Shown here one piece after another: positions 22,022 to 49,748 of a stretch of 64,000 nt of DNA. The DNA comes from a plasmid. The DNA lies in sequence record NZ_CP072340.1; one strand, given 5' to 3'. Every line of letters starts with the position of its first letter. The stretch's first letter is position 1. A program made the position numbers and the translations under genes. The notes under the pieces are model-generated. The model was not told the DNA's origin and did not search any database. It worked only from the letters and a program-made list of their open reading frames with translations.

Positions 22022-22037
22022 GGAATGTGCGATGGAA

Positions 22038-22523: not shown

Positions 22524-22524
22524 A

Positions 22525-27141: not shown

Positions 27142-27231
27142 TACAACAAGAAAGTTATAGAGATATAAAGTTGTAAATAAAAATAAAATGTCTGACTATG
27201 AACGAAAGAGCATAGTCAGACACAGAAACTC

Positions 27232-27649: not shown

Positions 27650-27770
27650 AAATAAAGAAAGGGAAAGAAACTCGCTCGTTTCCATCTCGTAACCCATTTA
27701 CCCTTTATTCATTCTTATTTTATTGATTATCTGAAAGATACAATATTCTTGAATCTTTTACGGGCGTAAT
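27650..27770. repeat. conserved right-end block of element 2 (near-identical to 48692-48800)
   Basis: aaagggaaagaaactcgctcgtttccatctcgtaacccatttaccctttattcattcttattttattgattatctgaaagatacaatattcttgaatctttt. Confidence 0.7.
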
Positions 27771-32553: not shown

Positions 32554-33735
32554 TTATCTCTCTCGTTGTTTTCCTTTCCTATTCTCAAACTCAAATGCAG
32601 TGGTACAGTCGTCCTGCAATACCAGTCGGGCATTGAACTTCTTACCAGCCTTGCTGGTCAAGCCATTGAGGACGGGCGTCCGACCTGTGGTTATCAAATC
32701 TCGGATATTGCCCTCTGTAAGAAGCGTTCCACAGACCTCACGAAATATATGAAAGTCGCAGCCCTCGTGTCTGCATTTGGCGACTTTGGTATAAATGCCC
32801 ACACTTTCGTTACCACATTTAGGGCAGTGGTAGGTGGGATAAGACTTCTGCACCTGTGGAGCAAGGGCAAGGAGTTCCTCGCAGATAGTGCCGACGTATG
32901 AGTTGATGCCTTGCGCGAACTTCTCCGCCGGCATTTGTCTCGCCTCGATAGCGGCAAGAGCCAGTTCCCAACTGCCAGTCATCTCCGCATTGGCAATCTT
33001 CTTGTCCTTGACAATCTCATAGACTGACAAGCCTTTTTCGGTAGGTATGATAGCTTTCTTATTCCTACGGATATAGTCACGGAGAATAAGCGTTTCGATA
33101 ATGTTGGCACGGGTTGCAGGTGTGCCGATACCGCACTCTGCCATCGCCTTCTTGCTTTCAGCATCTTCGACATCTTTCCCAGCGTTCTCCATTGCAGAGA
33201 GCAGAGTTGCTTCTGTGTAGAGTGGTTTCGGCTTGGTCTTATGCTCGGTAATCTCTGCATTGAGAAGTGACAGGACTTCACCTTCCGTTAAGCTGGGCAG
33301 GGCGGATAAGGTCTGTTCCTCGTTTTCCTTTCCATTTTCATTTTGAGTGTCAGCGCCTTGCTGCACGTCTTTCCAACCCAAAGAGATTTGTCGGCACGCC
33401 TTCCAAGTAAAGGTATTGGTGCCGTCCGTGAACTTCACCTGCATACGTTCTTCCTCTGAGTCGGGAGAGAAAGCCTCTAAAAAGCGAGTTACTATCATTT
33501 GATAGATGGTCGCCTCGTCCACCGACAAGCCCGAAGGGGTTTCTCCTGTGGGGATAATAGCGTGGTGGTCGGTAACTTTTGCATTGTCCACAGAATGGCG
33601 GTTAAGCGGATTGGATAGCGCCTTGTCTATCTTGCGAAGCAGGACGGGTACTTCCTCAAAGACATCCTCACTGATGTATCGGCTGCCTGTACGGGGATAG
33701 TTTATAGAATAAAGACAATGAAAGAAGAAAGGACA
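32554..33735 (-). pseudogene. topB: DNA topoisomerase III, 3' fragment (from active-site YPR motif to zinc-ribbon C-terminus)
   Basis: DHHAIIPTGE, CPKCGNES zinc ribbon; hand translation upstream of the ORF-track start gives ..LYSINYPRTGSRYISEDVFEEV, open to ~33867. Confidence 0.75.
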
Positions 33736-33815
33736 AACAAAAACGAAATCTGCTGAATAATAGCAATTTATGCACTTTATTGCTTTTTATGGAATGGCAA
33801 GGATAGGCGAAAAAC

Positions 33816-33885
33816 GGCAGGAGTTCCGTTACCAAATCGTAACCCAACAGGGAAAAAGCAAAAATGGGTTACGAATCGAAGCTAA
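33816..33885. repeat. conserved left-end block with CGTAACCC..GGGTTACG inverted repeat
   Basis: Near-identical to 16428-16495. Confidence 0.6.
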
Positions 33886-35219
33886 ACAACTGTGTCATAG
33901 GTTTTTATTCCTCATCTTTCATTTTTTTGCATCGCTCTGGAGCACTTGAATGTATGTACCTTTGCATGCAAAGGAAATTTAGAAAAAACGACAGAGAAAT
34001 GAAAGAAAACAAACTGAAAGTGTCGTTCTTCGTTCAAGCAGGACGAGCGGACAAAAAAGGCATGGTGCCGCTTATCGGACGGATAGAACTAGGCAGGAGG
34101 CATTCCGCCTTTTCCGCCAAAAAGAAAATCCCATTGTCTCTTTGGGACAGCAGGAAGCAACGTCTTCTCGGCAAGAGTGCCATCGCAAATTCAATCAACC
34201 GGTATTTGAATGAATGCACCGCACTCGTTCACGCTCGTTATCGGGAACTCTGCGAAAGGGGAGAGACATTCTCGGCTGCGGACGTGCGCAATGCCTATCA
34301 GGGACAGCTTTGTCAAAATGCAATGCTTTTAGAGTGTTATGCTGAATACCTCAGACAGATTGAGGAAAGAGTGGGCATAGACCGGGCTATGAAAACTTTG
34401 GAGCTGCGCACCTATCAGCAAACGCTTCTTCGGGAGTATGTGCGGAGGAAATACAAGTTAAGTGATATTCCGCTTATGGAGTTGGATATTTCCTTTATAG
34501 AAGGCTATGAATACTTTCTGACAATAGACAGGAAACTGAAGCGTGGCAGCATATGCAGTGCCTTGTCTGCCTTAAAGGCGGTCGTGAACAAGGCAGTCAA
34601 AAATGGCATGACAGACATGTATCCGTTCATTAGCTACAGTTACGAGAAACTGAAAGGAACACCGAGAAACATCACGCAGGACGACCTGCAAAAGATTATC
34701 GATCTGCCCATCAGATGGGAGAAATACCGTGTCGTCCGTGATTTGTTCGTGTTCTCCTGCTTCAGCGGTCTTGCAATTTCGGACATACGCAATCTCAAAG
34801 AGGAAAACATCATCCTTGAGGAAGGCAGGCTATGTATCAAAAACAAGCGTGTCAAGACCAAGACTCCTTTTCGCGTAGTGGTTCTCCCTCCTGCCAAGAC
34901 CATTATGGAAAGATACAGGGGCATACGTGCAGGATATGTGTTTGACGTTCCCACAAGAGACGTGGTTTACAATGCAATGCACTACATACAGAGAAGCATC
35001 GGTATGGAAGCTCCGCTGACCTTCCACATGGCCCGCCATACCTTTGCATCGGTCATCACCCTGTCGGCGGGTGTCCCGATAGAAACCGTAAGCGGTATGC
35101 TGGGGCATACCAATTTGAGAACGACACAAGTGTATGCAGCGGTCAATTCCGAAAGAATCAGACAGGATATGCAGAAGATTCAACTGCAGATAGAACACAC
35201 ATTCACCTTAAAATTATAG
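33864..35219 (+). CDS. tyrosine integrase, first of pair (true start probably MKENKLKV at ~33999)
   Basis: HMARHTFASV...GHTNLRTTQVYAAV; ~75% identical to 16488..17831. Confidence 0.85.
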   Translation: MGYESKLNNCVIGFYSSSFIFLHRSGALECMYLCMQRKFRKNDREMKENKLKVSFFVQAGRADKKGMVPLIGRIELGRRHSAFSAKKKIPLSLWDSRKQRLLGKSAIANSINRYLNECTALVHARYRELCERGETFSAADVRNAYQGQLCQNAMLLECYAEYLRQIEERVGIDRAMKTLELRTYQQTLLREYVRRKYKLSDIPLMELDISFIEGYEYFLTIDRKLKRGSICSALSALKAVVNKAVKNGMTDMYPFISYSYEKLKGTPRNITQDDLQKIIDLPIRWEKYRVVRDLFVFSCFSGLAISDIRNLKEENIILEEGRLCIKNKRVKTKTPFRVVVLPPAKTIMERYRGIRAGYVFDVPTRDVVYNAMHYIQRSIGMEAPLTFHMARHTFASVITLSAGVPIETVSGMLGHTNLRTTQVYAAVNSERIRQDMQKIQLQIEHTFTLKL

Positions 35220-35222
35220 CTT

Positions 35223-36485
35223 ATGGCACGCAGCACATTCAGGACATTGTTCTACATTAACCGTTCCAAACTGAAGAAGAACGGCAAATGCCCGATAATG
35301 GGGCGAATCACCATAGACGGGCAGCAGGTACAATACAGCATGGGGCTGGAAATCAATCCTGACAATTGGGACGCAAAGCATGGCAGATGCAAAGGCGACC
35401 TTGACGAAATGAAGAGCATCAACCGCATACTGACAGAAAAGGAAGGACAGATGCAAGCCAAATACAATGAGCTGGTCTGGCAAAAGGGGTACGTGAGCGC
35501 AGAACTGCTCAAAAGCAGGCTGATGGAGGATTCACAAAGCAATGGCATGCTCATAGAAGAGGCAGACCGTTTTATAGAGGAAAAACGCCCTTGTGCAGGA
35601 GTGACCATTGCACAATCCACTTTTCGCAACTACATCTATGACAGGCAACTCATAGTGTCGTTTCTGCAGGATAAATTCGGGGTGTCGGATATTTGCTATT
35701 CACGGTTGGATTATGGCTTTATAGAGGAATTGGACTTCTACCTGAAAAGCAAGCGCGGACTGTCATCCGCCACCATTCAGATGACGGTTGTCTTCCTGAG
35801 AAAGCTCATAGGCATCGGGCAACGGAAAAAATACATCCGCCGAGACCCGTTTGTGGATTTCAAGGCGGAAAAGCCACACGGCACGAGAAGGTATCTTACA
35901 ACGGAGGAGCTCAACCGCATTTTGCAAACGCCCATTATCAACAAGCAGTTCGAGCGGGCAAGGCAACTCTTCATTTTCTGTGCCTTCACGGGATTGGCTC
36001 GTGTGGATATGCTGCGACTGACCCCAAGGCATATCCACCATTATGATGACGGAACTTGTGAGATACGCATCAAAAGGCAAAAGACGGACGTGGAAGCCAT
36101 CATTCCACTTCTGCCCATCGCAAAGGAGATACTTGATATTCATATAAAAGGGAAGCAACCCGATGAGTTGATATTTCCTACATTGAACGTCAGCAAGGCC
36201 TCTTTCGCCTGTATAAACATTGGTCAGATATGCCAGATAGAGAATGGCTTGACTTTTCACATGGCTCGCCACACTTTCGCCACGACCATCTGCCTTTCCA
36301 ACGGTATGGCAATGGAGACGCTCAGTAAGATGCTCGGACACAGCGACATTGGTACGACACAGATTTATGGAAAAATTACCGACCTGAAAATCAGAGAGGA
36401 TATGAGCCGATTGCAGGAGCGTGAAAACAAGGCTTTTTCTGATTACACCGAATCCATAGAACGACAAGTGGCATCAACATTTTAG
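35223..36485 (+). CDS. tyrosine integrase, second of pair
   Basis: HMARHTFATT...GHSDIGTTQIYGKI; homolog of 17836..19104. Confidence 0.85.
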   Translation: MARSTFRTLFYINRSKLKKNGKCPIMGRITIDGQQVQYSMGLEINPDNWDAKHGRCKGDLDEMKSINRILTEKEGQMQAKYNELVWQKGYVSAELLKSRLMEDSQSNGMLIEEADRFIEEKRPCAGVTIAQSTFRNYIYDRQLIVSFLQDKFGVSDICYSRLDYGFIEELDFYLKSKRGLSSATIQMTVVFLRKLIGIGQRKKYIRRDPFVDFKAEKPHGTRRYLTTEELNRILQTPIINKQFERARQLFIFCAFTGLARVDMLRLTPRHIHHYDDGTCEIRIKRQKTDVEAIIPLLPIAKEILDIHIKGKQPDELIFPTLNVSKASFACINIGQICQIENGLTFHMARHTFATTICLSNGMAMETLSKMLGHSDIGTTQIYGKITDLKIREDMSRLQERENKAFSDYTESIERQVASTF

Positions 36486-36506
36486 AAATCAACAAATACC
36501 TACAAA

Positions 36507-36977
36507 ATGAATACAGATAATAATACAAAGGAACTTTCCTACTTTCAGTTGAAATTAAGAAGTTATATGAGTGAACATCACCCCGAAAGGTTACAAGATA
36601 CGGAGTTTATCACAGCACGGGCAGATATGGCTCTGACCACTTACTGCGATGCTGTGGCGCAGGGCTTCACGCACCCCGAGGCGGAGAGCATGGCAAGCGA
36701 GGTTTTGTACCAGGGCTTGCATCTCTCCAAGTACGATACGCTTGTATCTGTGTTGGAAAACGAATTTGAAAGGGAACTGCCTGCTCCGCTCCCAGAGAAG
36801 CTCGCACCCATATTGTTATCGAATGAGGCTGTTCAAGCCACATTCGACAAGTTCGGTTTGACGGACATATTTGCCGCAAGCGGACAATACGACCGCCTTT
36901 ACACCGAACTAACAGGCACGATAGTGCTGCTCATTGAGAGCAATAATCTGCCGACAGTCGGTCAGACAGACAGATAA
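36507..36977 (+). CDS. conserved hypothetical protein (paralog of 19157..19624)
   Basis: High identity to element-2 copy. Confidence 0.6.
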   Translation: MNTDNNTKELSYFQLKLRSYMSEHHPERLQDTEFITARADMALTTYCDAVAQGFTHPEAESMASEVLYQGLHLSKYDTLVSVLENEFERELPAPLPEKLAPILLSNEAVQATFDKFGLTDIFAASGQYDRLYTELTGTIVLLIESNNLPTVGQTDR

Positions 36978-37077
36978 AACGTATGTCTGCATCTTATAAA
37001 CAGCCTCATGCAAAGCCCTGAAACCGTAATCGGTCGGGCAAAGGTATGACGGTAGCCTTTACTTACTTGCAAGGTCG

Positions 37078-37121
37078 AGTCCTGCGGATGGAGCGAAAAA
37101 TCTCCACCGCAGGGCTTTTCT
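37078..37121 (+). terminator. hairpin CCTGCGGATGGAG..TCTCCACCGCAGG + T-rich tract
   Basis: Conserved copy of 19715-19761. Confidence 0.55.
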
Positions 37122-37669
37122 CTGCACTTTGATACAGTCATACTTGCAAAAACTAATCTTTTGTGCGGTCGTATTTTTCGCTCCAACCTTGCAAAAGTAG
37201 GCTAACCTCCAAAGGAAAATGCCCGAACGAATACGGCATACTCAGGCTCTTTGGACGCAAGCGATAAAACAAATATTCTACCTGTCAACCGCACGGACGA
37301 TTGGTCAATCTCTCTGTAGTTCGGTAGAGAACTCTCACTTTCGTTCAATATATCTATCGTTCGGACAATCTATTTCTCGAACAATAGAACGTTCGATATG
37401 TCGAATAATCGAATGTTCGAGAGTTAGTTGCTTACATTTTCGCTGAAATGGAACGAACCGACACCTCATCTCATTACCGCAATCATTTATATCTCCCCAT
37501 TGTTTTTGTCTTTTACACATCACGTTTTCCTTTGCCTTCCCTCTGTTTCCCTGCTTTTCTCTGTCCCTTTTTTCTATGCCGTCATAGGCTTACCTTTGCA
37601 CACGATAATAACGGCAACAGACTGTATATGAGTTTGTTTGCTAAGTAATAACAACGTAATCAAAACAAA

Positions 37670-37948
37670 ATGAATGCAATGAAACTTATCATTATTGACC
37701 GCAAGGCATGGGAGCGACACTGTTCCGACTTTACAGATCTTATCCACCGTATCGAACAGCTTATCGGCAATCCGCCTGAAGCGGACGAATGGCTCGACAA
37801 TGAAGCCGTATGTCGCAGGCTCGGCATCAGCAAGCGCACCCTGCAATCCTATCGGGACACAGGCAAGATCCCTTTCTCTATCATTGGGCATAAATGCTAT
37901 TATAAGGAAAGCGACATCACAGAGTTACTGAACTCAAACACTAAATAA
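37670..37948 (+). CDS. Xis-like helix-turn-helix protein
   Basis: Paralog of 20304..20573. Confidence 0.65.
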   Translation: MNAMKLIIIDRKAWERHCSDFTDLIHRIEQLIGNPPEADEWLDNEAVCRRLGISKRTLQSYRDTGKIPFSIIGHKCYYKESDITELLNSNTK

Positions 37949-37951
37949 ATT

Positions 37952-38266
37952 ATGGCAGAGAACGAAATCATTACACAGCAAGACCCTCAGATGCAGATGT
38001 TTGCACAGTTAATGGAGGGCATATTGAAGAAATTGGAGCGTTATTGCTCTACAGCCCGTCCGATGTTAGGCGGAGAGGTTTACCTCACAGGAGAGGAGGT
38101 TTGCAAGCAGTTACGGCTGAGTCCCCGAACCCTTCAGGACTATCGGGACAACGGTACGATTGCCTACTGCAAAATCGGAGGGAAGATACTCTACAGGCAG
38201 AGCGATATACAGGCTATGCTTGAAAGACATTATAACCCGATATCCAAGAAGCCATGGCAAGTGTAA
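37952..38266 (+). CDS. Xis-like helix-turn-helix protein
   Basis: Paralog of 20577..20891. Confidence 0.65.
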   Translation: MAENEIITQQDPQMQMFAQLMEGILKKLERYCSTARPMLGGEVYLTGEEVCKQLRLSPRTLQDYRDNGTIAYCKIGGKILYRQSDIQAMLERHYNPISKKPWQV

Positions 38267-38334
38267 AGGAGCAGAGAGTGAACGTTTCGGGATATGTGGA
38301 GCAGGTGCTTCGGGAACACCTTGGCCAATACAAA

Positions 38335-38577
38335 GATGATGTGGAAAGATGGCGGAAACTCTGAAGTACTGAATTCTTCGAATGCAAGCCTGCGCAGAGT
38401 TACCACATTCACAGAATGCAGTAACACAGCAGGGGCTTATCAATCTCTTTCTTGCTACAGCAGCAAGGTGTGTCTTTGTCCGACAAATTGCCATTTGTAT
38501 CACAAATACCCTTGCCCCGAAGGGGGATTAAATCACTCCAAAGTCGTGATTAGATAGCAAACAAAACAACTAAGATT
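38335..38577. promoter_or_regulatory. oriT-like conserved block upstream of MobA-like gene
   Basis: Shared with 21395-21595 and 59986-60110. Confidence 0.5.
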
Positions 38578-39006
38578 ATGCCCAAATTAGAAATAGCCAA
38601 TAACAACCGTTACGGACACCGAAATACCGTAGAAGTGCCACGCTGGGACAGATGGGACACCCGTATGCCCGATGTAAAAGACCAGTTGCGTGCCATTGAC
38701 CTGTACAACAAGTCGGGTGCGGTGAGCAAGTCCGATTTTGTTCGCGCCCGAATACTCGGAGAGAGTTTCAAGGTGATAACAGTAGATAGGTCCGTCGTGG
38801 AGTACCACCGCAAGCTCTCTGAACTTACAGTCCAAGTACATAAGATAGGCACAAACTACAATCAGGTCGTACGCTTAATGCACCTTTATACGGCAGAGAA
38901 AAGCATACAGGCATTGTTGCGGGAGCTTATTGGTTTGACAAAAGAACTCACTGCCTTGCAAGAGAAAGCAGTGAGTTTAACCATTGACTATCGGGAGAGA
39001 TTATGA
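38578..39006 (+). CDS. MobA-like relaxosome accessory protein
   Basis: ~55% identical to backbone mobA; no relaxase gene follows. Confidence 0.7.
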   Translation: MPKLEIANNNRYGHRNTVEVPRWDRWDTRMPDVKDQLRAIDLYNKSGAVSKSDFVRARILGESFKVITVDRSVVEYHRKLSELTVQVHKIGTNYNQVVRLMHLYTAEKSIQALLRELIGLTKELTALQEKAVSLTIDYRERL

Positions 39007-39194
39007 AAGTATTAACATTACGCTCTTTAGAGCCAGGTATTTTGTGATTGAAACAGAAAGCCATATTGTGGTATGACTTTCTGTTTATTGCTACTACAAT
39101 ATGTCATAGGGGGAGACCTTTGCCATGATTTCTAAGCCATATACATAACTTTGTTCGTCTGTTGTCAGAGATTTAGTTTCATAACAAGCAAGAA

Positions 39195-40718
39195 CTATCT
39201 TCTCGGAGTGTTCACTAGTGTTTTATATGCATCAATCAGCCCGTATCCGAAATCGTTATTCCAAGAACCATTCTTTTTAATCACAGAATAATCGACTGTT
39301 ATTTTTTTCGTGTTCTTTTCAATAAGATCGTTCACTTCCGTAACTCGCAGAGACGGATTCCTTTCCAATATCAAGGCTGCTAATCCTGCCACATGGGGAC
39401 ATGCCATGGAAGTTCCATCCATTTCTCCGGTCATGTTGTTGGGCATGGTCGACAAGATGTCGCTTCCCGGAGCCACAACGTCCAGTTTTTCCCCAACATT
39501 TGAGTATGGAGCCAAACTGCCTGTCTTCTCTATCGCACCAACAGCGATAATGGTGTCGTTGCAGTTTGCGGGATAACTGACAGGACGTCTCCAGTCATTT
39601 CCGGCTGCAAACACGATGACACAGCCTTTTCCTTCTCTGCCATACTTGAAGGCATTGTATATCGCCTGGTTAATGGCGGCGTGTTGTGTGGAAGAACCCC
39701 AAGAGTTGGAGATGACATCCACTCCGTTTCTCCATGCCCAATTGATGCCGTCAGCCCTTCTTATGCGACTGTTGGTGGTACCGTGTAAAGAGTTGCTGAT
39801 GGAAACAAGTTTCGCGTCCGGGGCGACACCTGCCACATGTATGCCATTGTTCCTTACTGCCGCGGCAATCCCTGCACAATGTGTGGCATGATCACCATAC
39901 AATATGCTTGGGGAGGTGTTGGTTTCCGTGTCATAACTCAAGCTTGAGACATTTTCTACGAGATCAATATGGTCCATGTCAATTCCCTGATCCAACACGC
40001 CTATCTTGATATTTCGTCCGGTGGCATAATTCCATGCGGCGCACGCTGAAATATCCATATCCGCGTAGTTGGAATTATACAGCCCCCATTGACTTCCGAC
40101 CAACGGGTCATAGGAACAATACAGGTCATTTGAAGAGAAATCCGCGACGGATGATGCGAACAGCCCCGTCTCATACAATTCATTTGCCACCTCCAGGGAT
40201 GTTTTTCCCGTGTTGGGTGTTATGGAAAGAATATACCACCGTGGCATGAATTTGTCCTGTTCCGTAATGACAAGGTTGTATTCCATCGCTTTTTCCCGCA
40301 ACAAAGAATAGTCTGATTCTTTCTTCAATTCCACATTGAGATAATTGGTCAAAACCAATTCATCCCCGTACTCGTTCTTATAGCATGGAAGTACCATGGC
40401 ATTGTCTGCCTCTGCCGCTTCTTTCATGGTCTTCAACAGCGATGGCGGACCTTCATTTCCCCTGCCAGCTTCATATACGGTTATGTCGTATATGTTGTCT
40501 TTAATGGTTTGGGAGACTTTAAACCCTGAAGATTCTTTTGCAGGTTGGAAACTTGCCCCCTTTTTATTACCTTTTTTATCCTTTACTACGCAGACTTTTC
40601 GCGCATTTTCCGCAATGTAAATTTTATTGCCATTGAAGTAATAATATGCCGATTGGGAAATGGCTTCTGAGGCAGTGATTGACACCAGTGCCATGAATAA
40701 TAAAATCCTTTTCATCAT
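39195..40718 (-). CDS. secreted S8-family (subtilisin-like) serine peptidase
   Basis: Signal peptide; catalytic D (IGVLDQGID), H (HATHCAGIAAA), S (GTSMACPHVAGLAAL). Confidence 0.85.
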   Translation of the reverse strand: MMKRILLFMALVSITASEAISQSAYYYFNGNKIYIAENARKVCVVKDKKGNKKGASFQPAKESSGFKVSQTIKDNIYDITVYEAGRGNEGPPSLLKTMKEAAEADNAMVLPCYKNEYGDELVLTNYLNVELKKESDYSLLREKAMEYNLVITEQDKFMPRWYILSITPNTGKTSLEVANELYETGLFASSVADFSSNDLYCSYDPLVGSQWGLYNSNYADMDISACAAWNYATGRNIKIGVLDQGIDMDHIDLVENVSSLSYDTETNTSPSILYGDHATHCAGIAAAVRNNGIHVAGVAPDAKLVSISNSLHGTTNSRIRRADGINWAWRNGVDVISNSWGSSTQHAAINQAIYNAFKYGREGKGCVIVFAAGNDWRRPVSYPANCNDTIIAVGAIEKTGSLAPYSNVGEKLDVVAPGSDILSTMPNNMTGEMDGTSMACPHVAGLAALILERNPSLRVTEVNDLIEKNTKKITVDYSVIKKNGSWNNDFGYGLIDAYKTLVNTPRR

Positions 40719-40863
40719 ATTCTAAATTTAAGAATTAAGACTGTCTGTTATATAAAAATCCTCCGTATTTATATTCTGCCCATGCAAACAAGCTGTGATC
40801 CTGACGGAACTAAGGCATGCCGCATGGACAGAATGTCAACTGTCTGTTACAGGCGTACTACCG

Positions 40864-42153
40864 TCAAATGACGACTTTATATGATTTCCCGTCAATGGAA
40901 ACAACATAAATACCGTTTGACGTCAGGTTCAAAACGAAATTCCGTGAAGTAACAATATGGTCGGTAACTTTCTTTCCGTCCGTTGAATAAATACATACCG
41001 TCGCGCCTATCGGTGCATCTATTATCGTTATTTTTCTGTCTGACGCTTTGATTTCCATCTTGCCGTTAGACACACCGCCGAGTCCTGTGCCGATGTTCAC
41101 ATCGAAACTGTTCTTGGCATTTACCGACACATTGCCGTCAGCTGAGATTACCGTACCCTCGGGGATCACGATACTGCAGCCTTTTTCGGGGACTCTCAAC
41201 CCACTGAAATCACAGGAAACAATCCATCGGCCCCACCTGCCATCCTCATCTTCGGACAGCGTGGGCGTGACCTCCTTGATCAGTTTGTTGTCGGTGTCGA
41301 ACAATTGAATTTTGGGGTCTGACGAAAGCATGACGGCCTGCCTGTAGTAAAAGCGCACCTCGCCGAGCACGTCAATGCCGTGATTGTCAAAGAGGCTACA
41401 CCATACATAGGTTATCGGCTCTATCGGCTTTGTATATCCACCGATGAAATCCACTCTCGTCTCTTCGTTGGTGATGTCCGTGCGAAATCTGGGGCTCAGA
41501 CTACCTTCTGGCATTACGAGAGAATAGTGGACGCCTTTCTCAAAATTCATCTTCATCCCGAAGTCGGCATACGCCTGCCCCAGGTTCCAGTCCCAGCCCA
41601 CATGCGCATCGAATGTCCTTACGGGCACTCCCTCGCGGTACAGGGTCATGGTGGGGCTGCCCACAGGCTCAGTCTCGGTCCCATAGTAGAACCAGATATG
41701 CTCTTCGGTTTCTACCGAAGAACCGTTTTCCACCGAGCACTCAGTACTTATGATCTTTTCGGGGACTTCAAAATCAAATTTCAGGTCTCCATTTTTTACG
41801 TCGGGCGCGCTCTTCAGGAAGATTGCCCCCGCCGGAATTTCCAACTTGTAGGACTTGCCCTTGGGAAGGACAAGTTTTTCAAAGGTAACAAGTGCGATGC
41901 CTTTCTCCATATAAGTATCGGAGGTAATCACACCGGTTGCCATTGTCTTGTCTCCGCAGGTTATGGTCGCCTTGGCGTCTTTGGATATGTCAACATGAGC
42001 CGTAAATTCCATGTGAACCTGATTTATAGGCTCATAGACAAGCTTATTCTCAATGCTGCACTCCTGAGGTACTAAGGTTGCAACCTCGTTGGCGTAAGCG
42101 GATATTGCGGACATGCAGAGCCCGACAATACCGAGGAATAAATGCTTTTTCAT
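40864..42153 (-). CDS. lipoprotein/secreted protein with T9SS C-terminal sorting domain
   Basis: Start at MKKHLFLGIVGLCMSAISA; C-terminal ..SNGIYVVSIDGKSYKVVI Por-secretion-tail-like. Confidence 0.5.
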   Translation of the reverse strand: MKKHLFLGIVGLCMSAISAYANEVATLVPQECSIENKLVYEPINQVHMEFTAHVDISKDAKATITCGDKTMATGVITSDTYMEKGIALVTFEKLVLPKGKSYKLEIPAGAIFLKSAPDVKNGDLKFDFEVPEKIISTECSVENGSSVETEEHIWFYYGTETEPVGSPTMTLYREGVPVRTFDAHVGWDWNLGQAYADFGMKMNFEKGVHYSLVMPEGSLSPRFRTDITNEETRVDFIGGYTKPIEPITYVWCSLFDNHGIDVLGEVRFYYRQAVMLSSDPKIQLFDTDNKLIKEVTPTLSEDEDGRWGRWIVSCDFSGLRVPEKGCSIVIPEGTVISADGNVSVNAKNSFDVNIGTGLGGVSNGKMEIKASDRKITIIDAPIGATVCIYSTDGKKVTDHIVTSRNFVLNLTSNGIYVVSIDGKSYKVVI

Positions 42154-42234
42154 ATTAAGCTCCTTTCTTTGAATTAATTTATTAATATTAAGGTCTGAAC
42201 TACCGTATGGGGAAGTCTGCAAAAGACCGTAAAA

Positions 42235-43725
42235 TCAGCGACGGGGTGTATTGACAACGGCTTTATAGGCATCTATCAACCCATAGCCGTAATGTTCGTT
42301 CCAGCTTCCGAATGCCTTGTTGGTGTCGTATGCGTATGTCCCGATTTTCTTCGCATTCTTTGCGATGATTTCCCTAACTTTATAAGCAGAAAGTTGGGGA
42401 TTGCGTTCAAGTATCAAGGCAGCCAATCCTGCCACGTGCGGAGCCGCCATGGACGTTCCTCCCATATATGTAACTGCATTTCCGGGTACTGTTGACAGAA
42501 TATAAGTGCCCGGAGCCGTAACGAACATGTTCGACCCGTAGGCAGAGGTTGTCGAAAGCGTCCCGTCCTGTTTCATATTTGCAACAGCTATCACTTCCGG
42601 ACGATAGTCTCCGGGGAAGGAGATAGGACCGCTTGTATTGCCTGCCGACTTCACAAACACGCATCCTCGACCTTCTCGACCTCTTGACAGAGCCAAGTCG
42701 ATTGCCTCCTTGACTATATCCTTATCGGAACACCACCATGAGCAAGAGATGATATCCGCACCATGCTGCCAAGCCCAATTTATTCCATTCGCCAGATTGC
42801 TTTCCAATTCAGTTGAACCAGACAGGGTGTTGCTGACAGACATTAAGGTGGCATCCGGGGCTACTCCTGCCACCTGTATCCCGTTATTCCTTACAGCTGC
42901 TGCAATTCCTGCACAATGTGTACCATGGGCACCGTAAACCTTGCTGGGAGAGCTTTTTGTTTCCGTATCATAACTCAAACTGCTGATATTGTCAGCCAGA
43001 TCCTGATGGGCAAGATCTATGCCTTGATCGACAATGGCAATCGTGATGCCGCGCCCTGTTGAGTATCCCCATGCCCGGCTGACAGAAATATCCATCCCTT
43101 CATATGTCGAGTTGTACAGTCCCCATTGATTGAGGACGTTCGGATCATAGGAAATTTCAAGGGCATCGAAAGAGAAGCCCGGCGAGGAAGATGCAAACTT
43201 TCCGGATTCATATATCGAGTTTGCCACCACTACTGCATCTCTTCCAGAGGTTTCCGATAACCTCAGGCTATACCATAGTGGCATAAAGGGATTCTGCCCT
43301 ATAATTTCACAGTCGTATTGTCTTGCAGTACTTTGCAGAGCCGGATAATCTTTTTCCGATTTCAGCTTTACATCGATATATCCTGTCGGGATAAGTTCCT
43401 TTCCGTCCTCAGTTACGAAGCAAGACTGTATGGAGACAGGATTGGAGACTGAAGCGTATGCAAGCGATTTGACTGTTTGGGCTGTCATAGAAGACCTAAC
43501 CTTATAAACTTCTATTTTGCTTCTGCTGTCTGAAATATTCTTTTCAAATTGCAGATTACAATTGTTGACACTCGCATTGCCGGCGAGAGGGGAGATTACT
43601 ACAATTTTGGAAGCATTTTCCGTCAGAGGAATCCGTTTCCCATCATAATAATAAAATGCATCCTGAGCATAGGACACTATATTCACAGCCAATGCGAACA
43701 AAAGAAATATGATTGTCTTTTTCAT
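42235..43725 (-). CDS. secreted S8-family serine peptidase (paralog)
   Basis: IAIVDQGIDLAH (D), HGTHCAGIAAA (H), GTSMAAPHVAGLAAL (S). Confidence 0.85.
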   Translation of the reverse strand: MKKTIIFLLFALAVNIVSYAQDAFYYYDGKRIPLTENASKIVVISPLAGNASVNNCNLQFEKNISDSRSKIEVYKVRSSMTAQTVKSLAYASVSNPVSIQSCFVTEDGKELIPTGYIDVKLKSEKDYPALQSTARQYDCEIIGQNPFMPLWYSLRLSETSGRDAVVVANSIYESGKFASSSPGFSFDALEISYDPNVLNQWGLYNSTYEGMDISVSRAWGYSTGRGITIAIVDQGIDLAHQDLADNISSLSYDTETKSSPSKVYGAHGTHCAGIAAAVRNNGIQVAGVAPDATLMSVSNTLSGSTELESNLANGINWAWQHGADIISCSWWCSDKDIVKEAIDLALSRGREGRGCVFVKSAGNTSGPISFPGDYRPEVIAVANMKQDGTLSTTSAYGSNMFVTAPGTYILSTVPGNAVTYMGGTSMAAPHVAGLAALILERNPQLSAYKVREIIAKNAKKIGTYAYDTNKAFGSWNEHYGYGLIDAYKAVVNTPRR

Positions 43726-43733
43726 TGCAAATA

Positions 43734-44663
43734 CTATTTAATGATTATTTTCTGTGTATAAATTGATTTGCCCTTCTTTGTCAAAGTGCAAATATATATG
43801 CCTTTTGAAAATTGAGGCACATCGATGTTCTTTGCCGTCACGGACGAGGAGAGAACTTTCTGTCCGTATATATTGAGAATGTCAATGTGGTCGCAGTTCG
43901 CTATGGAACTCAACTCTATCGAGCCGTTATGGTATGCCATACGGATAGTCTGCTTGTATTCAATATCGTCAATACCGGTTTCTTTGAGATTGATGACGGG
44001 ACGAATGGGAAGACCGATTGTTCTCTTGCTAGATCTTCTGCCAACACTGCCTGAATCGTAATCTATATCTTTGGCTTTCGTTATAAGATCATCAGGATCT
44101 CCTTCTGCTCTATGAAGCGTTCCGGTCCAACAATATCCTTTCCAATTCTGGTTACGATATGTTGTCCCTTGATATGTAGCAGCGTATCCGGCAGCAGGAA
44201 GAAACAGGGTGTTTTCATTTGCACCATAATGGAAGCGTCTGCCCCAAATGCCGTCCACTTCCTCCCATTTATTCCAGCAGAGTCTCACGAGTTCCCCTAC
44301 CTCCTCAAAAGTAGGCAGGCGCCATCGTCCGCCCCATTTTACCCTTGCTGCATCGTATTCCGTCCCGCAGATATTTTCTCCGATATTCGTGCATAACGTG
44401 TAATAGGCAACTCCGGGAATCTCCTTGTATCCTTCAAAGAATTTGTAATTCTCATTAGTATATTCCTCTTTAGGCTCTGTCTCTCCCCATGCAAAGTAGT
44501 CTCCGAAATCTATGGAAGACTCAGCGCCGATGTTGCAGGTTGCCCACAGGGTACCGCTGGGCAATCCCATGTCCACATACTCATGACCGTCTATGACGTT
44601 TGTCTGCGCATGGGAAACAGAAACGAGTAGGATGCTTAATATGGATGTAAAAAGAAATCTCAT
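43734..44663 (-). CDS. secreted protein with DUF1566-like (Lcl C-terminal-like) region and T9SS C-terminal domain
   Basis: GGRWRLPTFEEVGELV motif; C-terminal KGIYICTLTKKGKSIYTQKIIIK. Confidence 0.45.
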   Translation of the reverse strand: MRFLFTSILSILLVSVSHAQTNVIDGHEYVDMGLPSGTLWATCNIGAESSIDFGDYFAWGETEPKEEYTNENYKFFEGYKEIPGVAYYTLCTNIGENICGTEYDAARVKWGGRWRLPTFEEVGELVRLCWNKWEEVDGIWGRRFHYGANENTLFLPAAGYAATYQGTTYRNQNWKGYCWTGTLHRAEGDPDDLITKAKDIDYDSGSVGRRSSKRTIGLPIRPVINLKETGIDDIEYKQTIRMAYHNGSIELSSIANCDHIDILNIYGQKVLSSSVTAKNIDVPQFSKGIYICTLTKKGKSIYTQKIIIK

Positions 44664-44730
44664 ATCATATGAATTTTATAAGGAGTAGGTTCAGGCTGAA
44701 ATTAGCCAATCCTACTCCTTGGTCTATGAT

Positions 44731-46338
44731 TTACTTGACGAAAATCTTTTTCGTTTCCATACCATTCTCATATGTGACTGAGAAAGCGTAAACACCGCCG
44801 TTCTTTATGTTTAGAGAATTCAAAGCGAGTGTGACGGAAAAGGCATTCACTTTTACCGAACTTAGTTTGACACCGGACATGTCATACACTTCCAATTTGC
44901 TCATCTTCCTTCCTGATGAAATCGTTATGTCTGAAATTAGAACAGCAGGACACGGGGTAATGGAAAGTTGAGAGTCCCGTTCAATCTTTGAAACGTCTGT
45001 TGTGCCGTTCTGCTTTGCCTGTGCGGGAGCAAGGAAGGCGGACACATTCGCATCATTGCTTACACGGGCAAGAATATTGCAAGCCGATTCTGGCTTGAAT
45101 GAACTGTAATTAGATACATGTATGCCCGTCGTTTCAACAAAGTATCTCTGACTGATGTATGAATCCCTATTGCTTAGGTTATATTGGTTGAGCTTTGCAT
45201 AAGGACCATCATCGTTAAATCCGACCACATTTTCTGCATCATTTCCTTCAATGAAGAGCATGGGATCGTCAGTGCCGGGAGTATTGCAATTCGTCATAGT
45301 CGCATACTCGTGACCGTCTGCCGGTATTTCACACTTACAATTCGAAAAATATATCGGAGCGTTCTCATAGAAGTAATTGCCATTGACATTCAAGTCCGCC
45401 ACACTCAGCACTCCATTGCCAGCACTCCGTAGTTTTATCAGATACATTCCTGTTTTCGGTATCGTGACTTTCAGTGTTGCGATTTGATTATTAGGGTTAT
45501 TCAGAGCCTTTTCTGAGAGATGTCCCCAATTGAGCCCCTGCATCTCTTCCGATGTAGCAGGAGTGTAAAAAAATCGTGGTTTCATATCTCCAATTGGAAT
45601 TGTGGGGAAAAGACCCTCTTGAGGGGAATTAGCGGGGAAAAGTATTTGTTTCCCATAATAGACCATATCTATTTTATGAGCTATTCTACTTGTGGAAGTT
45701 ATAAAAATCTCTTGACCTTTCGTGAAAGAGAATGTCCGATAGAAAGAATATTTCAACGGCACATGTGTAAAATACTTAATGCCCGCAGCATCACGTGAAT
45801 CACTTTCCGTCATTTCCGCCATGCTTACATCTGGAGTGCCATCTGATGAGACGGCTTTTCGCAGGTATGAGTTAAAACCGGCGGACTGAAATCTCGTTGC
45901 CATCATGTTCCGTGATATTTTGACGGACTCTACGTTTGGCACTTCGGGGGCATTGGTTGCAATTGATATTGTGTTAATGCCGTTTTTAAGTTGCAGGGCA
46001 GGTTTCGCTTCAACGGAAGCAGACTGCCAGTTCCCAACGGTTGGCTTAACCGAACCGGAAAGCGTGCCGTTCACATACACCTTGAATGTGGTGAATTTCC
46101 CGTTGGCATACCTTGTCGGCTGAAGCCAAAAATTAACGTAATAATCACCTGCTTCAAATGCCTGAACCTCAAAGTTTTTGTAATTTAGCACATTGTCTGT
46201 CGTTTCATACATACTTTTGATCTCTAAAACATTGTTTGAAGTCAAAGGTTTGCTCTCATTTCTCTGTGCATTTGCATGTTGTACAGGAAAAGTCGTTGTT
46301 AATGCACAGAATACTGTCATGAATAAAATTTTTCTCAT
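44731..46338 (-). CDS. secreted protein with T9SS C-terminal domain
   Basis: Signal peptide MRKILFMTVFCALTTTFPVQHANA; C-terminal ..GGVYAFSVTYENGMETKKIFVK. Confidence 0.45.
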   Translation of the reverse strand: MRKILFMTVFCALTTTFPVQHANAQRNESKPLTSNNVLEIKSMYETTDNVLNYKNFEVQAFEAGDYYVNFWLQPTRYANGKFTTFKVYVNGTLSGSVKPTVGNWQSASVEAKPALQLKNGINTISIATNAPEVPNVESVKISRNMMATRFQSAGFNSYLRKAVSSDGTPDVSMAEMTESDSRDAAGIKYFTHVPLKYSFYRTFSFTKGQEIFITSTSRIAHKIDMVYYGKQILFPANSPQEGLFPTIPIGDMKPRFFYTPATSEEMQGLNWGHLSEKALNNPNNQIATLKVTIPKTGMYLIKLRSAGNGVLSVADLNVNGNYFYENAPIYFSNCKCEIPADGHEYATMTNCNTPGTDDPMLFIEGNDAENVVGFNDDGPYAKLNQYNLSNRDSYISQRYFVETTGIHVSNYSSFKPESACNILARVSNDANVSAFLAPAQAKQNGTTDVSKIERDSQLSITPCPAVLISDITISSGRKMSKLEVYDMSGVKLSSVKVNAFSVTLALNSLNIKNGGVYAFSVTYENGMETKKIFVK

Positions 46339-46581
46339 GTCTTAAAACTTTTATTATTAATAACTTGCCTATATTCCCTTTTATGGGATACTGACAATTT
46401 CATATCATTCAAAATGATAGATTGTACAGAAATTTTGCTGTCAACAAATATGAATAAATTTGTAACAGATAAAAATTATTTTGCTTTTATTTATGCTTTG
46501 GATGAAATTGATTATTATTTTGTTCTCTTTTGTTTTTTACAAACTCCTTGCAAGGGACTTCATAAATACAGAGGCTAACTA

Positions 46582-47718
46582 TCATACAGATAGAAGCACT
46601 GTTCCATACGAGAACCTTCCACTCTCCGGTACAAGAAGAAGTATCTTGTTTCCACGTTTAATTTCTTTTGTCCTTATGAGCTCTTCCAGTGCCACATAAA
46701 TGGCAGCCGAACCGATGTTGCCTACAGAAGTAAGGTTTGTAAACCACTTCTCTTTTGTCAGAGCAATGTTACGAGCAGCAATTTCGTCATTTAACTTCTC
46801 ATAGAAAAACATTGATGATACATGAGGTATAATATAGTCTATCTCATCTGCTTTTATATGATGTTTGGCAAGTATGGTTTCGATATGGTCAACCCAATAC
46901 TTAATAATGTGCTTCTTTAATTGCCGTATGTCCTGTTTGCCCACAAGTACGGCACGCTCCTTAATCTCATCAGGAGAGAACTCCTTCCAGCTTTTGAGCC
47001 GTCCGTTTTCTTGCAACTCCGATGCCATAAACATACAGGTAGGTAGTTCGTTGGCATAGGAAGTCATATCGACCCATTCGATTTTGAGTGGGCATGTTCC
47101 TTCGGGATGATCTTGCACCAATACCGCTCCTGCACCATCAGAAAGCATAAACCGCATAAAATCCTTCTCAAAAGCCATATAAGGGTCTTTGTCAGGATTG
47201 TCATGTGTAGCTTCATACTCCGGGTCATAAAATTTGGATACCAATGCAGGTGAGGTTAATTCTGATGCCACGCATACAGCTTTTTGATGCAGTCCTGCAA
47301 GAATATTGCTATAGCATATTTTCAATGCCTGCAATGAGGTAAGGCATACACCTGCAGAGGAAAATATTTCCATAGGATAGTTGGCTAATTCTCCATGAAC
47401 CATAGACGCATGGGAAGGAAGCAATTGGTCGGGTGTGCTTGTCCCACAAGCCAATAATGTCAGGTCATTTGGAATTTGTCTATTCTCAAACAGCCCACAT
47501 ACGGCTTCTTTTGCCAATTCTGCATTCGAGTGTGTTAGGCTTTGGGTTTTGTCCAACCCGTAATATCTCGTTTTGATGCCATTTTGTCTAAGGACAATGG
47601 AACGAACCCTTGACGGATTTCCACCAATTTTCCCAATATAGTCCTCCATATCCTCATTGACGATGGGAGAATTAGGAAGATATGCCGATACGCTATTGAT
47701 ATATACTGCTTTTTCCAT
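46582..47718 (-). CDS. FabH-like beta-ketoacyl-ACP synthase III family ketosynthase (thiolase superfamily)
   Basis: N-terminal ..YINSVSAYLPNSPIVNEDMEDYIG.. , active-site Cys context SSAGVCLTSLQAL, C-terminal ..FSYGTVLLSV. Confidence 0.65.
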   Translation of the reverse strand: MEKAVYINSVSAYLPNSPIVNEDMEDYIGKIGGNPSRVRSIVLRQNGIKTRYYGLDKTQSLTHSNAELAKEAVCGLFENRQIPNDLTLLACGTSTPDQLLPSHASMVHGELANYPMEIFSSAGVCLTSLQALKICYSNILAGLHQKAVCVASELTSPALVSKFYDPEYEATHDNPDKDPYMAFEKDFMRFMLSDGAGAVLVQDHPEGTCPLKIEWVDMTSYANELPTCMFMASELQENGRLKSWKEFSPDEIKERAVLVGKQDIRQLKKHIIKYWVDHIETILAKHHIKADEIDYIIPHVSSMFFYEKLNDEIAARNIALTKEKWFTNLTSVGNIGSAAIYVALEELIRTKEIKRGNKILLLVPESGRFSYGTVLLSV

Positions 47719-47725
47719 AGGAATA

Positions 47726-48352
47726 TTATTTGGTTATTAAATAGTATATTGTGTATATTTGCTCTTTCAATTCGGAAATGGAAAGTTGGCTGCTCAATGC
47801 ACTTCTGTATGACAATCCAAGATATATATTTCTAATGGAAGATATAATCTTTTCTGTTTCCACAGTTTGAGTAATCTCTCCTTTCTGTTTGGCAAGCTCT
47901 ATCACCTCTTTCCACTCAAGGCTCTTTCTTTTCTCGTATTCTTGAAACTTCTCTTTCCAATCCGGATAGTTGTCTTTCAGATACAAGATAAATGACATGA
48001 AATTGGCAGGAGTGACTGTGCCTTTTGTCATTATAAAAAATGATTTCATACGGCGACCGATGTTTTCTACACGATTATCAATGAAGTCCTTTAATGGTGT
48101 CGAGCTTGTAAGTTCAAGAAAGTCTGTAGCATCATTTGTCAAGAATTCAAATACAAACCTATCAACGGCATGACTGAATATATCCTCCTTATTCTTGAAG
48201 TGATGAAACATATTGCCACGAGAAATGCCGGTCGCTTCCACTAAATCCGAAAATGATACTGCTGCATAACCTTTTTTCAGAAACAGCCTGAACGATTCAT
48301 TAAGGATAATGTCCCTTTTGCTTATGCTTTCTTTAACTATTTGTTTTTCCAT
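47726..48352 (-). CDS. TetR/AcrR-family transcriptional regulator
   Basis: RDIILNESFRLFLKKGYAAVSFSDLVEATGISRGNMFHHFKNKEDIF HTH; likely start MEKQIVKE. Confidence 0.75.
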   Translation of the reverse strand: MEKQIVKESISKRDIILNESFRLFLKKGYAAVSFSDLVEATGISRGNMFHHFKNKEDIFSHAVDRFVFEFLTNDATDFLELTSSTPLKDFIDNRVENIGRRMKSFFIMTKGTVTPANFMSFILYLKDNYPDWKEKFQEYEKRKSLEWKEVIELAKQKGEITQTVETEKIISSIRNIYLGLSYRSALSSQLSISELKEQIYTIYYLITK

Positions 48353-48691
48353 TATTTCATACTTGCTAAATTCAAAACAGAACGTTTGTTCCGTGCTTAT
48401 AAGTGCAATATTATGCAAATTATTTCAATCCGCCAAATATTTCGGGGGATTTTTCTTCAAAAAGTTTCATTTCTCTCTTTTTTTTTCATTTTACAATAGA
48501 AAAATAGTTGTTTCTATTCATTTTTGCTGATTAGGCAATAAGGCTAAAAAATCCTGACAAATTACCTCCATTAAAATTAGTTGGTAATGATTTTAAGTGC
48601 TCCTACAAATTATTTCCGTAAAAACACACTGCTTTCATCAGAAAATATTATCTTTGCACTATCAATTTAAGTGTTCTTTGGGGCGTTGTAG

Positions 48692-48800
48692 AATAAAGAA
48701 GGGAAAAGAAACTCGCTCGTTTCCAACTCGTAACCCATTTATCCTTTATTCATCCTTATTCTATTGATTATCTGAAAGATACAAAATTCTAAAATCTTTT
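48692..48800. repeat. conserved right-end block of element 3
   Basis: Near-identical to 27650-27760; supplies ..KRF + stop to the topB 5' fragment. Confidence 0.7.
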
Positions 48801-49748
48801 GCGGGGATAGGTCGTGATTTTCTTCTCATAGAGGCTCTGGGCAATCGAGAGGGTCTTGTCTGCTGAAAAGCCGTGGCGTCTGTTGGCTTCTTTCTGCAAG
48901 GCAGTAAGGTCGTACAAGAGTGGTGGTACGGTATGTCCCACCTGTTTTGCGACCGACTCTACTTTAAGCCGGCTCTGACTGCGGAGCGCAGCGAGAGCTG
49001 TCTGTGCCGATGCTTTATCCTCATAGTCTTCACAGCCAACGGCTTTCAGCGACACGCCCTCTTTCTCCATCAGGGCGGAGAGTTTCCAATAAGGCACGGA
49101 AGAAAAATCACGGTTCTCTATGTATCGACGGCAGACCATAGCGAGGGTTGGAGTCTGTACCCGTCCCAACGAATAGCCTCCCCTGCGGGCAATGGAAAGG
49201 GCACGGCTCGCATTGATTCCCACGAGCCAGTCGGCTTCGCTTCTTGCCTTGGCGGAATAATAGAGACTGTCGTAATGGCTTCCGGCCTTGAGATTAGAAA
49301 GCCCCTCACGGATAGCTCTGTCCGTGAGTGAAGAAATCCAAAGGCGGTCGAAGGGTTTTCGGCAATTGAGATAGGAATAGATGTATCTGAAGATAAGCTC
49401 ACCCTCCCGACCTGCATCGGTAGCAACGATGATGCGGTCAACCTTGTCAAAGCAGGATCGTATCACCTTGAGCTGCTTGAGTGCTGCTGGGTCGGATATA
49501 TAGTCCTTATCCTTACGTACTTGTCGTACCACTAACTGAAAAGGATTGGGACGGATGGGTAGATCTTCAGCTTTGTAGGCAGAAAAACCATAGGTTTCGG
49601 GCATGGCAAGGGCGATGAGGTGTCCCATTGCCCAAGTAACGAGATAACCGCAACCTTCCAAGCATCCGTCCTGCTTACTGTTTGCTCCGACAATGCGGGC
49701 AATGTCTCTGGCTACCGAGGGCTTCTCGGCAATAATACAAGTTGTCAT
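48789..49748 (-). pseudogene. topB: DNA topoisomerase III, 5' fragment (Toprim domain to active-site TYPR)
   Basis: MTTCIIAEKPSVARDIARIV Toprim start; ends ..KKITTYPRKRF* with last codons in element-3 end. Confidence 0.8.

Follow-up and report, generated by a model that had tools for sequence, protein, structure and literature searches.

A relaxase-less element with two tyrosine recombinases splits the topoisomerase gene of a CTnDOT-like conjugative transposon at its catalytic Tyr-Pro-Arg codons

In Firmicutes, integrative mobilizable elements (IMEs) occupy conserved genes of integrative and conjugative elements (ICEs) of the Tn5252 superfamily, as illustrated by IMESp2907 in a Maff2-type gene, a tet(O) fragment in an SNF2 helicase gene and Tn6104 in traG (PMC5704250). 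Here, we analyze a comparable case in a 64-kb stretch of plasmid DNA (record NZ_CP072340.1; hereafter the window, to which all coordinates refer), in which an insert that we call E3 splits the type IA topoisomerase gene of a conjugative transposon. We consider it probable, at a likelihood of roughly 80%, that E3 is a relaxase-less integrative element that lives inside CTnDOT-like conjugative transposons of the Bacteroidales, is probably mobilizable and integrates by means of two recombinases at a short core sequence. Like the Firmicute IMEs, it integrates site-specifically into conserved backbone genes of a conjugative element and splits them. One to three different IMEs are found per ICE, with an SNF2-type helicase gene among their targets, a situation similar to that in the window, and both systems raise the same question of whether the nested element is a hitchhiker or a pirate. 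However, the Firmicute IMEs use serine recombinases and usually contain replication modules, whereas E3 relies on two tandem tyrosine recombinases. Moreover, the active-site codons of a topoisomerase are absent from their listed targets. E3 thus works like these elements but stands outside their family, in another phylum and in another, CTnDOT-like family of ICEs.

Several other systems share individual features with E3. In the conjugative transposon CTn214 of B. fragilis, traG is interrupted by a 10-kb, 11-gene insert with two tyrosine recombinase genes (PMC10865816). Similar to E3, this insert is nested, has paired tyrosine recombinases and disrupts a backbone gene of a CTnDOT-like element, but its target is traG, it contains the mobilization genes btgA and btgB, and it is a single case for which att sites, a family and site specificity were not described (PMC10865816). 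NBU1, NBU2 and Tn4555 are likewise integrative elements of the Bacteroidales with a tyrosine integrase and known secondary sites, and they are mobilized by helpers of the CTnDOT, CTnERL or CTn341 type. Unlike E3, they have their own MobP relaxase and a single integrase, and they use tRNA 3' ends or a chromosomal locus rather than helper genes. The absence of a relaxase is shared with the islands MGIVflInd1, MGIVchHai6 and the SGI1 family, which contain a helper-like origin of transfer (oriT), with or without one relaxosome accessory factor, and depend on a specific helper family. These islands differ from E3 in that they occupy chromosomal gene sites, have a single integrase and belong to the Gammaproteobacteria, and the likeness extends to oriT only by way of an 88% identity between a segment of E3 and the region upstream of mobA in its helper. 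CTnDOT itself, with IntDOT, Xis2c, Xis2d and Exc, shares with E3 the Arm-DNA-bind_5, SAM_5 and catalytic domains of its integrase and a set of two small helix-turn-helix (HTH) candidate excisionases, but it has one integrase rather than two and a looser choice of targets. MTnBf8, which has two integrases, was considered as a match and rejected because it has a different nested structure at a tRNA-Ser site. In the literature on Bacteroidota, our coverage of which was incomplete, we found no description of the family of E3 and its sister element E2, of their att sites or of the targeting of topoisomerase and helicase genes. While the strategy of nesting is known, the recombinase class, phylum, helper family and targets observed here therefore appear to be new.

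The interrupted topoisomerase gene is present in two pieces, each bordered by one copy of the 9-bp sequence CGGGGATAG, which occurs exactly twice in the window, both times on the plus strand:

33692..33700, plus strand: attL, the left copy of the core CGGGGATAG, encoding Y314-P315-R316 of the topoisomerase 3' fragment (read on the minus strand)
48802..48810, plus strand: attR, the right copy of the core CGGGGATAG, encoding the YPR that ends the topoisomerase 5' fragment
48789..49748, minus strand: 5' fragment of the type IA topoisomerase gene, with Toprim and Topoisom_bac up to TYPR, followed by three element-encoded codons (KRF) and a stop
32554..33699, minus strand: 3' fragment of the type IA topoisomerase gene, from Y314 through the remaining Topoisom_bac and the Toprim_Crpt C-terminal repeat to the stop

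Read on the minus strand, the 9-mer is C-TAT-CCC-CG and comprises the last base of the preceding codon, the codons for Tyr and Pro and two bases of the Arg codon, whose third base is T at the 3' fragment and C at the 5' fragment. The 5' fragment (49748..48789) terminates in ...SLYEKKITTYPR-KRF* (EKKITTYPR-KRF*); the frame of the 3' fragment comes in from the insert, reads ...NYPRTGSRYISEDVF... and reaches its stop at 32554. The 5' piece, which also contains the Toprim domain, covers positions 3-163 of the Pfam Topoisom_bac profile and the 3' piece positions 161-409, so that the two are colinear and overlap by YPR only. In an alignment with E. coli topoisomerase III, KITTYPRTGSRY of the interrupted protein is paired with KLITYPRSDCRY, its tyrosine corresponding to Y328, the catalytic tyrosine of the E. 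coli enzyme. The Toprim domain, the Topoisom_bac core that continues across the two fragments and the catalytic tyrosine within TYPR identify the protein as a type IA topoisomerase.

The gene can be restored precisely in silico. Removal of the insert together with one copy of the repeat (joining 32554-33700 to 48811-49748) yields an open reading frame (ORF) of 694 aa, which aligns over residues 1-694 with residues 1-693 of an intact type IA topoisomerase from Prevotella nigrescens (90% identity, one gap), and the DNA of the P. nigrescens empty site matches exactly at each junction up to the repeat. Over its full length, the joined ORF matches an uninterrupted protein from the database (P0001) with 100% identity. 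A natural contig that carries P0001 (L108) has an empty site reading ACGACCTATCCCCGTACAGGC and is 99.8% identical, without gaps, to the 3,388 bp of DNA obtained by excision in silico. Since the junctions were placed independently, by colinearity, the chance of a 9-bp match at these very points is about 4e-6. The two fragments thus represent one type IA topoisomerase gene, split at its catalytic Tyr-Pro-Arg codons, and the repeat is not a chance match. These results agree with an earlier note on this DNA, which had described a topoisomerase gene split at its active-site TYPR motif between 9-bp direct repeats. An origin of the fragments from different paralogs, which it named as a refuting finding, is contradicted by the colinearity of both the Pfam matches and the joined ORF, and the comparison with intact topoisomerase genes that it proposed shows agreement of the joined gene with the P. 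nigrescens gene, P0001 and L108. It gave the correct sequence for the repeat, but the positions it assigned (33697-33705 and 48800-48808) were wrong by 5 and 2 bases.

The bases around the repeat reveal how it arose. The core is preceded by A both in the empty allele (L108) and at position 33691 in attL, whereas attR has a G at 48801 that derives from the element, which places the exchange inside the 9 bp. Across junctions, GGATAG is kept beside the element in attL and RCGGGG beside the element in attR, and the outer parts follow the target, as expected for a crossover within a short shared core. At two unrelated sites for which both ends were recovered (L009 and L062), the repeat is again (R)CGGGGATAG, indicating that the core is specified by the element. 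Empty sites contain it in a single copy, and the element has recombinases of its own. The 9 bp are the attP/attB core shared in a tyrosine-recombinase system and not a target duplication made by a transposase. The flanking direct repeat of the earlier note is real and, as L009 and L062 show, represents an att core rather than a random target duplication. In the 1.77 Mb of DNA fetched for comparison, the 9-mer occurs 33 times, namely at 25 element junctions, in four unoccupied topoisomerase genes and at four places elsewhere.

Integration at the topoisomerase codons has happened many times. An index of public assemblies lists the exact IntB protein (the second of the two recombinases) in 2,410 blocks. 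Left junctions were taken from a look-up of IntB, a scan of species-representative genomes, a metagenome scan and IMG/VR, and right junctions from a look-up of the TetR regulator encoded near the right end, complemented by the recovered right ends of L104, L009 and L062. The resulting tallies are biased, as the look-up shows each context once (de-duplicated), and two of the contexts outside the topoisomerase gene each represented seven further similar places. In 13 other loci (L002, L004, L005, L007, L008, L010, L022, L023 and L101-L105), the left junction of E3 coincides with topoisomerase residue 314; in six (L003, L006, L009, L011, L062 and L109), it falls outside the gene. In the TetR look-up, the right junction lies at residue 316 in five loci (L013, L016, L017, L019 and L021) and elsewhere in another five (L012, L014, L015, L018 and L020); with L104 in the topoisomerase gene and L009 and L062 elsewhere, this amounts to six against seven. 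Within the topoisomerase gene, the orientation of E3 is always the same. Contig k141_6744 of sample ERZ27310015, for instance, spans both junctions of the occupied site. The first 1,500 bp of E3 are 99.7-100% identical in 11 loci whose IntB is 99-100% identical to that of the window, and about 90% identical in the clade of L022 and L023. By contrast, the adjoining 380 bp of topoisomerase flank show only 75-87% identity in most of the 11 loci and cannot be aligned in L002, whose topoisomerase protein is 42% identical, such that the occupied alleles span 42-99% identity. Nearly identical elements next to divergent flanks point to repeated integrations at one codon of divergent alleles and contradict a single flanking haplotype shared by all copies in the topoisomerase gene. 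The preference of E3 for the topoisomerase site is real but not exclusive.

Two further observations concern these loci. A secondary site in a giant helicase gene (L012) was tried as a YPR-coding sequence and rejected, because the correct frame reads DYGIPP and the resemblance exists at the DNA level only. In L016 (2122-5565), and also in L021, the 5' fragment of the E3-occupied topoisomerase gene is cut again between residues 121 and 123 by a second invader, a reverse transcriptase/maturase gene of the group II intron type.

The body of E3 is delimited by comparison with empty sites, and its ends recur in more than 25 other loci. It comprises the following features:

33701..48801, plus strand: E3 body, 15,101 bp, between the core copies
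33837..33874, no strand assigned: two inverted copies of TCGTAACCCA, putative arm-type integrase sites at the left end
33864..35219, plus strand: IntA, a tyrosine recombinase with Arm-DNA-bind_5, SAM_5 and Phage_integrase domains
35223..36485, plus strand: IntB, a second tyrosine recombinase with Arm-DNA-bind_5, SAM_5 and a catalytic domain, about 30% identical to IntA
36507..36977, plus strand: DUF1896 protein, 86% identical to its E2 counterpart
37670-37948 and 37952-38266, plus strand: two adjacent HTH_17 proteins, candidate excisionases
38463..38554, plus strand: oriT-like non-coding segment with inverted repeats
38578..39006, plus strand: MobA-like relaxosome accessory protein (Pfam MobC_2), related by NCBIfam to Bacteroides MobA
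39195..48418, minus strand: cargo block with two S8 subtilases and a DUF6383 protein between them, two proteins with type IX secretion system (T9SS) sorting domains, a ketosynthase of the StlD/DarB family and a TetR regulator
48633..48801, plus strand: conserved right-end segment, 86% identical to the right end of E2, ending in ...ATTGATTATCTGAAAGATACAAAATTCTAAAATCTTTT(G)
48728-48737: third copy of TCGTAACCCA, a putative arm-type site at the right end

Both recombinases are of the IntDOT type, with an Arm-DNA-bind_5 domain, a SAM-like core-binding domain and a catalytic domain in which the aligned motifs K, HxxR, H and Y are kept; in each of the six integrases of the window, Ala stands at the position of the first Arg. 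Differences from the consensus in some attL and attR cores, for example GCGTGGGTAG, ACGGGGGTAA and E2 in the window (10 of 15 positions), may reflect a tolerance of heterology in part of the overlap region, as is typical of IntDOT-type recombinases. IntA likely starts at M46 (33999), in agreement with 406-aa gene calls elsewhere. All copies examined have only two adjacent tyrosine recombinases, and the element therefore does not belong to the recombinase-in-trio (RIT) group with its three. Five copies of the motif TCGTAACCCA are present in the window, all at ends of E2 or E3, against an expectation of 0.05, and they may plausibly serve as arm-type binding sites of the integrases. The second HTH_17 protein matches the NCBIfam excisionase domain weakly, with 26.8 bits, below the cutoff of 28.8. 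The 92 bp of the oriT-like segment are about 88% identical to a host segment just upstream of the host mobA gene (59993-60083) and to the equivalent segment of E2, while the MobA-like protein of E3 shares 62% identity with MobA of the host transposon. This segment is thus far more conserved than the MobA protein next to it, which would fit a shared cis-acting site such as oriT.

No relaxase gene follows the mobA-like gene of E3, which is instead directly abutted by cargo in the opposite orientation. Searches with the relaxase and coupling protein of the backbone itself (tblastn, E<=1) and with Pfam (ORFs >=85 aa) gave no counterpart of either in E2 or E3, and Pfam searches of all ORFs >=85 aa identified no mating-pore genes in E3. 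It also contains no transposase gene. As tRNA and Rfam scans of the window gave no match, no tRNA-type attachment site is involved. A scan of the left 5.7 kb of E3 for sigma-70 promoters and terminators, with a consensus that is unsuited to Bacteroidota, returned counts that were not above those in shuffled sequence. The roughly 700 bp between the DUF1896 gene and the first HTH_17 gene (36977-37670) have no called gene in any copy and lie within a stretch that is 73% identical between E2 and E3. In the cargo, the ketosynthase encoded next to the TetR regulator (46582-48418 for both) matches the StlD/DarB family with 492 bits, above the NCBIfam cutoff of 450, which suggests that a mobile element may convey dialkylresorcinol-type chemistry.

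A second insert in the window belongs to the same family:

About 16318-27759: E2, with the same layout and ends as E3
32460..27727 (N-terminal part) and 16320..14728 (C-terminal part): backbone N6-methylase/SNF2 helicase gene, split by E2

E2 and E3 share 72% identity in IntA as well as in IntB and 89% in the MobA-like protein. Homology between the two elements extends over the 5.3 kb of the left arm and about 170 bp at the right end, whereas the cargo differs and consists in E2 of an ATP-binding cassette (ABC) exporter with a C39 peptidase and an outer-membrane beta-barrel protein. An intact allele, used for comparison, shows that E2 targets codons for ...ATDYARK..., with the crossover within ...GCGGGCGTAATCAGT.... 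We compared 36 E2-type loci with usable flanks and an IntB at least 90% identical to that of E2. By an automated test, 27 of them have the element directly against residue 1-2 of the helicase C-terminal fragment, in alleles that are 57-96% identical; insertions merely shift the junction in L065 and L066, and counting both raises the number to 29. The genomes concerned belong to Prevotella, Hoylesella, Segatella, Hallella, Alloprevotella, Porphyromonas and Phocaeicola. A third lineage with tandem integrases cuts the helicase gene near residue 1497 in L007, L008, L023 and L106 (16500-16940 in L106). It has a core around TATGCGGAAGT, and its integrases lie on the strand of the target, opposite in relative orientation to those of E2 and E3. 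Backbones differ in the nested elements they contain, with E3 alone in L004 and L005, E3 plus the third lineage in L007 and E3 plus E2 in the window, which indicates that the elements were acquired independently.

A further segment of the window, E1 (5976-14641), contains a third integrase pair, which shares about 30% identity with the pairs of E2 and E3. Behind it lie genes for two HTH proteins, a Toprim/AAA_25 primase-helicase, an AbiEi/AbiEii pair and a PP2C phosphatase. A distance of 87 bp separates the end of E1 from the helicase stop codon, and a comparison of 5501-6000 with 14601-14800 gave no convincing direct repeat. E1 could be a separate element or the integration module of the transposon itself.

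The backbone into which these elements have inserted is that of a CTnDOT-type conjugative transposon of the Bacteroidales. To the right of E3, one strand encodes MobA, a relaxase and a coupling protein and the other a ParA-like TraA and two DUF3408 proteins, and genes for a LuxR-type regulator and a DUF4099/DUF3945 protein lie upstream of the split topoisomerase gene. An intact relative (L106) shows the same order, from the coupling protein through the LuxR-type regulator and the DUF4099/DUF3945 protein to the topoisomerase and the methylase/helicase. For a CTnDOT-like element, the list of key proteins likewise includes a DNA methylase and topoisomerase III (PMC10865816), a feature shared by the backbone in the window. 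The designation of E3 in the earlier note as a parasite nested in a parasite is apt insofar as a discrete mobile element sits inside a conjugative transposon backbone. Elsewhere in this backbone, positions 53006-55714 contain two long antiparallel ORFs that overlap almost fully (833 aa on the minus and 883 aa on the plus strand), neither with a Pfam match, and the corresponding place in L106 is occupied by a 1,221-aa gene, again with no Pfam match. Some backbones have a DUF1896 gene of their own between topoisomerase and helicase, for instance L002 (6718-7149), pointing to a possible origin of the nested Int-Int-DUF1896 module in conjugative-transposon backbones.

Based on this anatomy, integration by two recombinases at a core of 9-10 bp is well supported. 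IntA and IntB would recombine the site of the element (...AATCTTTT-RCGGGGATAG-TTTATAGAAT...) with targets that share this core. Among natural targets, the commonest are the Thr-Tyr-Pro-Arg codons at the catalytic tyrosine of a transposon-borne type IA topoisomerase, a sequence whose constancy is maintained by selection on the active site. Integration splits the topoisomerase gene and leaves one copy of the core at each junction, and precise excision, probably aided by the two HTH_17 proteins, would restore it; excision is suggested by the precise restorability of the gene and the presence of two excisionase-like HTH proteins. Lacking a relaxase of its own, E3 would either travel as a passenger inside the transposon or borrow the relaxase, coupling protein and mating pore of the latter. 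The near-identical copies in many contexts suggest mobility. Several points weigh against this model. Insertions outside the topoisomerase gene are numerous, accounting for 6 of 20 junctions on the left and 7 of 13 on the right, with the two junctions of the window counted in the totals. The attR core of L020 (right junction at about 7075, reverse strand) is TCAAGATAAAG instead of RCGGGGATAG and misfits a simple fixed-core model; it may be a "coupling sequence" carried over from an earlier site, as in CTnDOT and Tn916, or the product of an aberrant event. The junction of the excised circle (attP, with the core left free) was found neither among JGI metagenome contigs nor in IMG/VR, although this is weak evidence, given that these sets contained only five copies and one copy of the element, respectively. 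Finally, the oriT function and the mobilization are proposed from sequence similarity alone.

What the insertion means for the host transposon is the point on which other readings diverge. The one that survives best, although we regard it as doubtful, follows the suggestion of the earlier note that the insertion may cripple the mobility of its host; E3 would destroy an Exc-like topoisomerase and thereby disable excision or transfer of the transposon, making E3 a harmful parasite and the composite a dead end. Consistent with this idea, both the topoisomerase and the methylase/helicase gene of the window are split, and neither topoisomerase fragment is a complete enzyme, the first in-frame start of the 3' piece lying 36 codons after YPR. 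In CTnDOT, exc is the last gene of the xis2c-xis2d-orf3-exc operon, and Exc is required in vivo for excision and also for activation of mob; an exc deletion abolishes excision (PMC3809561). However, a mutant of Exc in which the catalytic Tyr is replaced by Phe excises normally in vivo (PMC3809561), and no small xis2c or xis2d genes were called upstream of the topoisomerase gene in the window or in L106, so that any kinship to Exc would exist in a context unlike the CTnDOT operon. Moreover, the insertion is very abundant and found in many divergent transposon alleles, which is hard to reconcile with dead ends throughout, and in Firmicutes, ICESp2905 remains capable of transfer although IMEs occupy its SNF2- and Maff2-type genes (PMC5704250). 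The wide occurrence of such insertions and this precedent indicate that they can be tolerated, and precise excision would undo the damage.

It is also conceivable, but unlikely, that E3, together with E2 in the helicase gene, acts as a reversible switch, such that excision rebuilds the genes and functions of the transposon depend on it or are timed by it. Comparable interruptions are the skin element in sigK and the comK prophages. The in-silico excision product that equals a natural intact protein would suit such a role, as would the 3' fragment, which in most occupied loci is a single frame-intact match from residue 314 to residues 691-694, and the fixed site and orientation of each lineage in conserved backbone genes. 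Recent insertion would explain the intact fragments equally well, though, considering that the copies of the element are 99.7-100% identical, and many copies reside at non-transposon or intergenic sites. The lack of an attP junction in the two contig collections also speaks against a switch.

In a broader and equally speculative version, for which we see little likelihood, E3, E2 and their relatives would form a radiating guild of relaxase-less elements with tandem integrases, each specialized on a conserved, motif-coding site in CTnDOT-like backbones, whose reversible interruptions lock the helper until excision returns the topoisomerase or helicase. Three such sites were seen, the catalytic-tyrosine codons of the topoisomerase gene, the "TDYARK" site of the helicase gene and helicase residue ~1497. 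If helpers were indeed locked in this manner, their transfer would be coupled or subordinated to that of the nested elements.

Two remaining explanations fare considerably worse. It is very improbable that E3 is an inert relic, a decayed fragment of a conjugative transposon that has lost its relaxase and is inherited only with its host; the missing relaxase and the cargo that abuts mobA in opposite orientation would fit such decay, but near-identical copies occupy divergent topoisomerase alleles and no fewer than 10 different sequence contexts, the two integrase genes are undamaged and retain the codons for their catalytic residues, and conservation extends to the ends and the arm-like motifs. 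Ordinary transposition in which a transposase duplicates 9 bp of the target, suggested by the short direct repeat that flanks the insert, can be rejected, since E3 has two tyrosine recombinases instead of a transposase and its repeat has the same sequence at independent, unrelated sites, pre-exists as a single copy in empty sites and is bordered by differing bases, as after a crossover within shared homology.

Collectively, our findings show that DNA coding for the catalytic motif of an enzyme can serve a mobile element as a landing pad. They extend to the Bacteroidota, with paired tyrosine recombinases, the strategy known from Firmicutes in which nested mobilizable elements split genes of conjugative elements. 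In practical terms, gene calls such as "truncated topoisomerase" or "truncated helicase" next to integrase pairs in such genomes mark insertion junctions and not gene decay. Elements of the E3 and E2 type are abundant in human-associated Prevotellaceae and Bacteroidaceae, and the cargo that they would move between conjugative transposons includes secreted proteases, a dialkylresorcinol-type ketosynthase and a peptide-exporter cluster. The question of whether they throttle their helpers or ride on them is relevant to how resistance and fitness genes spread in the oral and gut microbiota.

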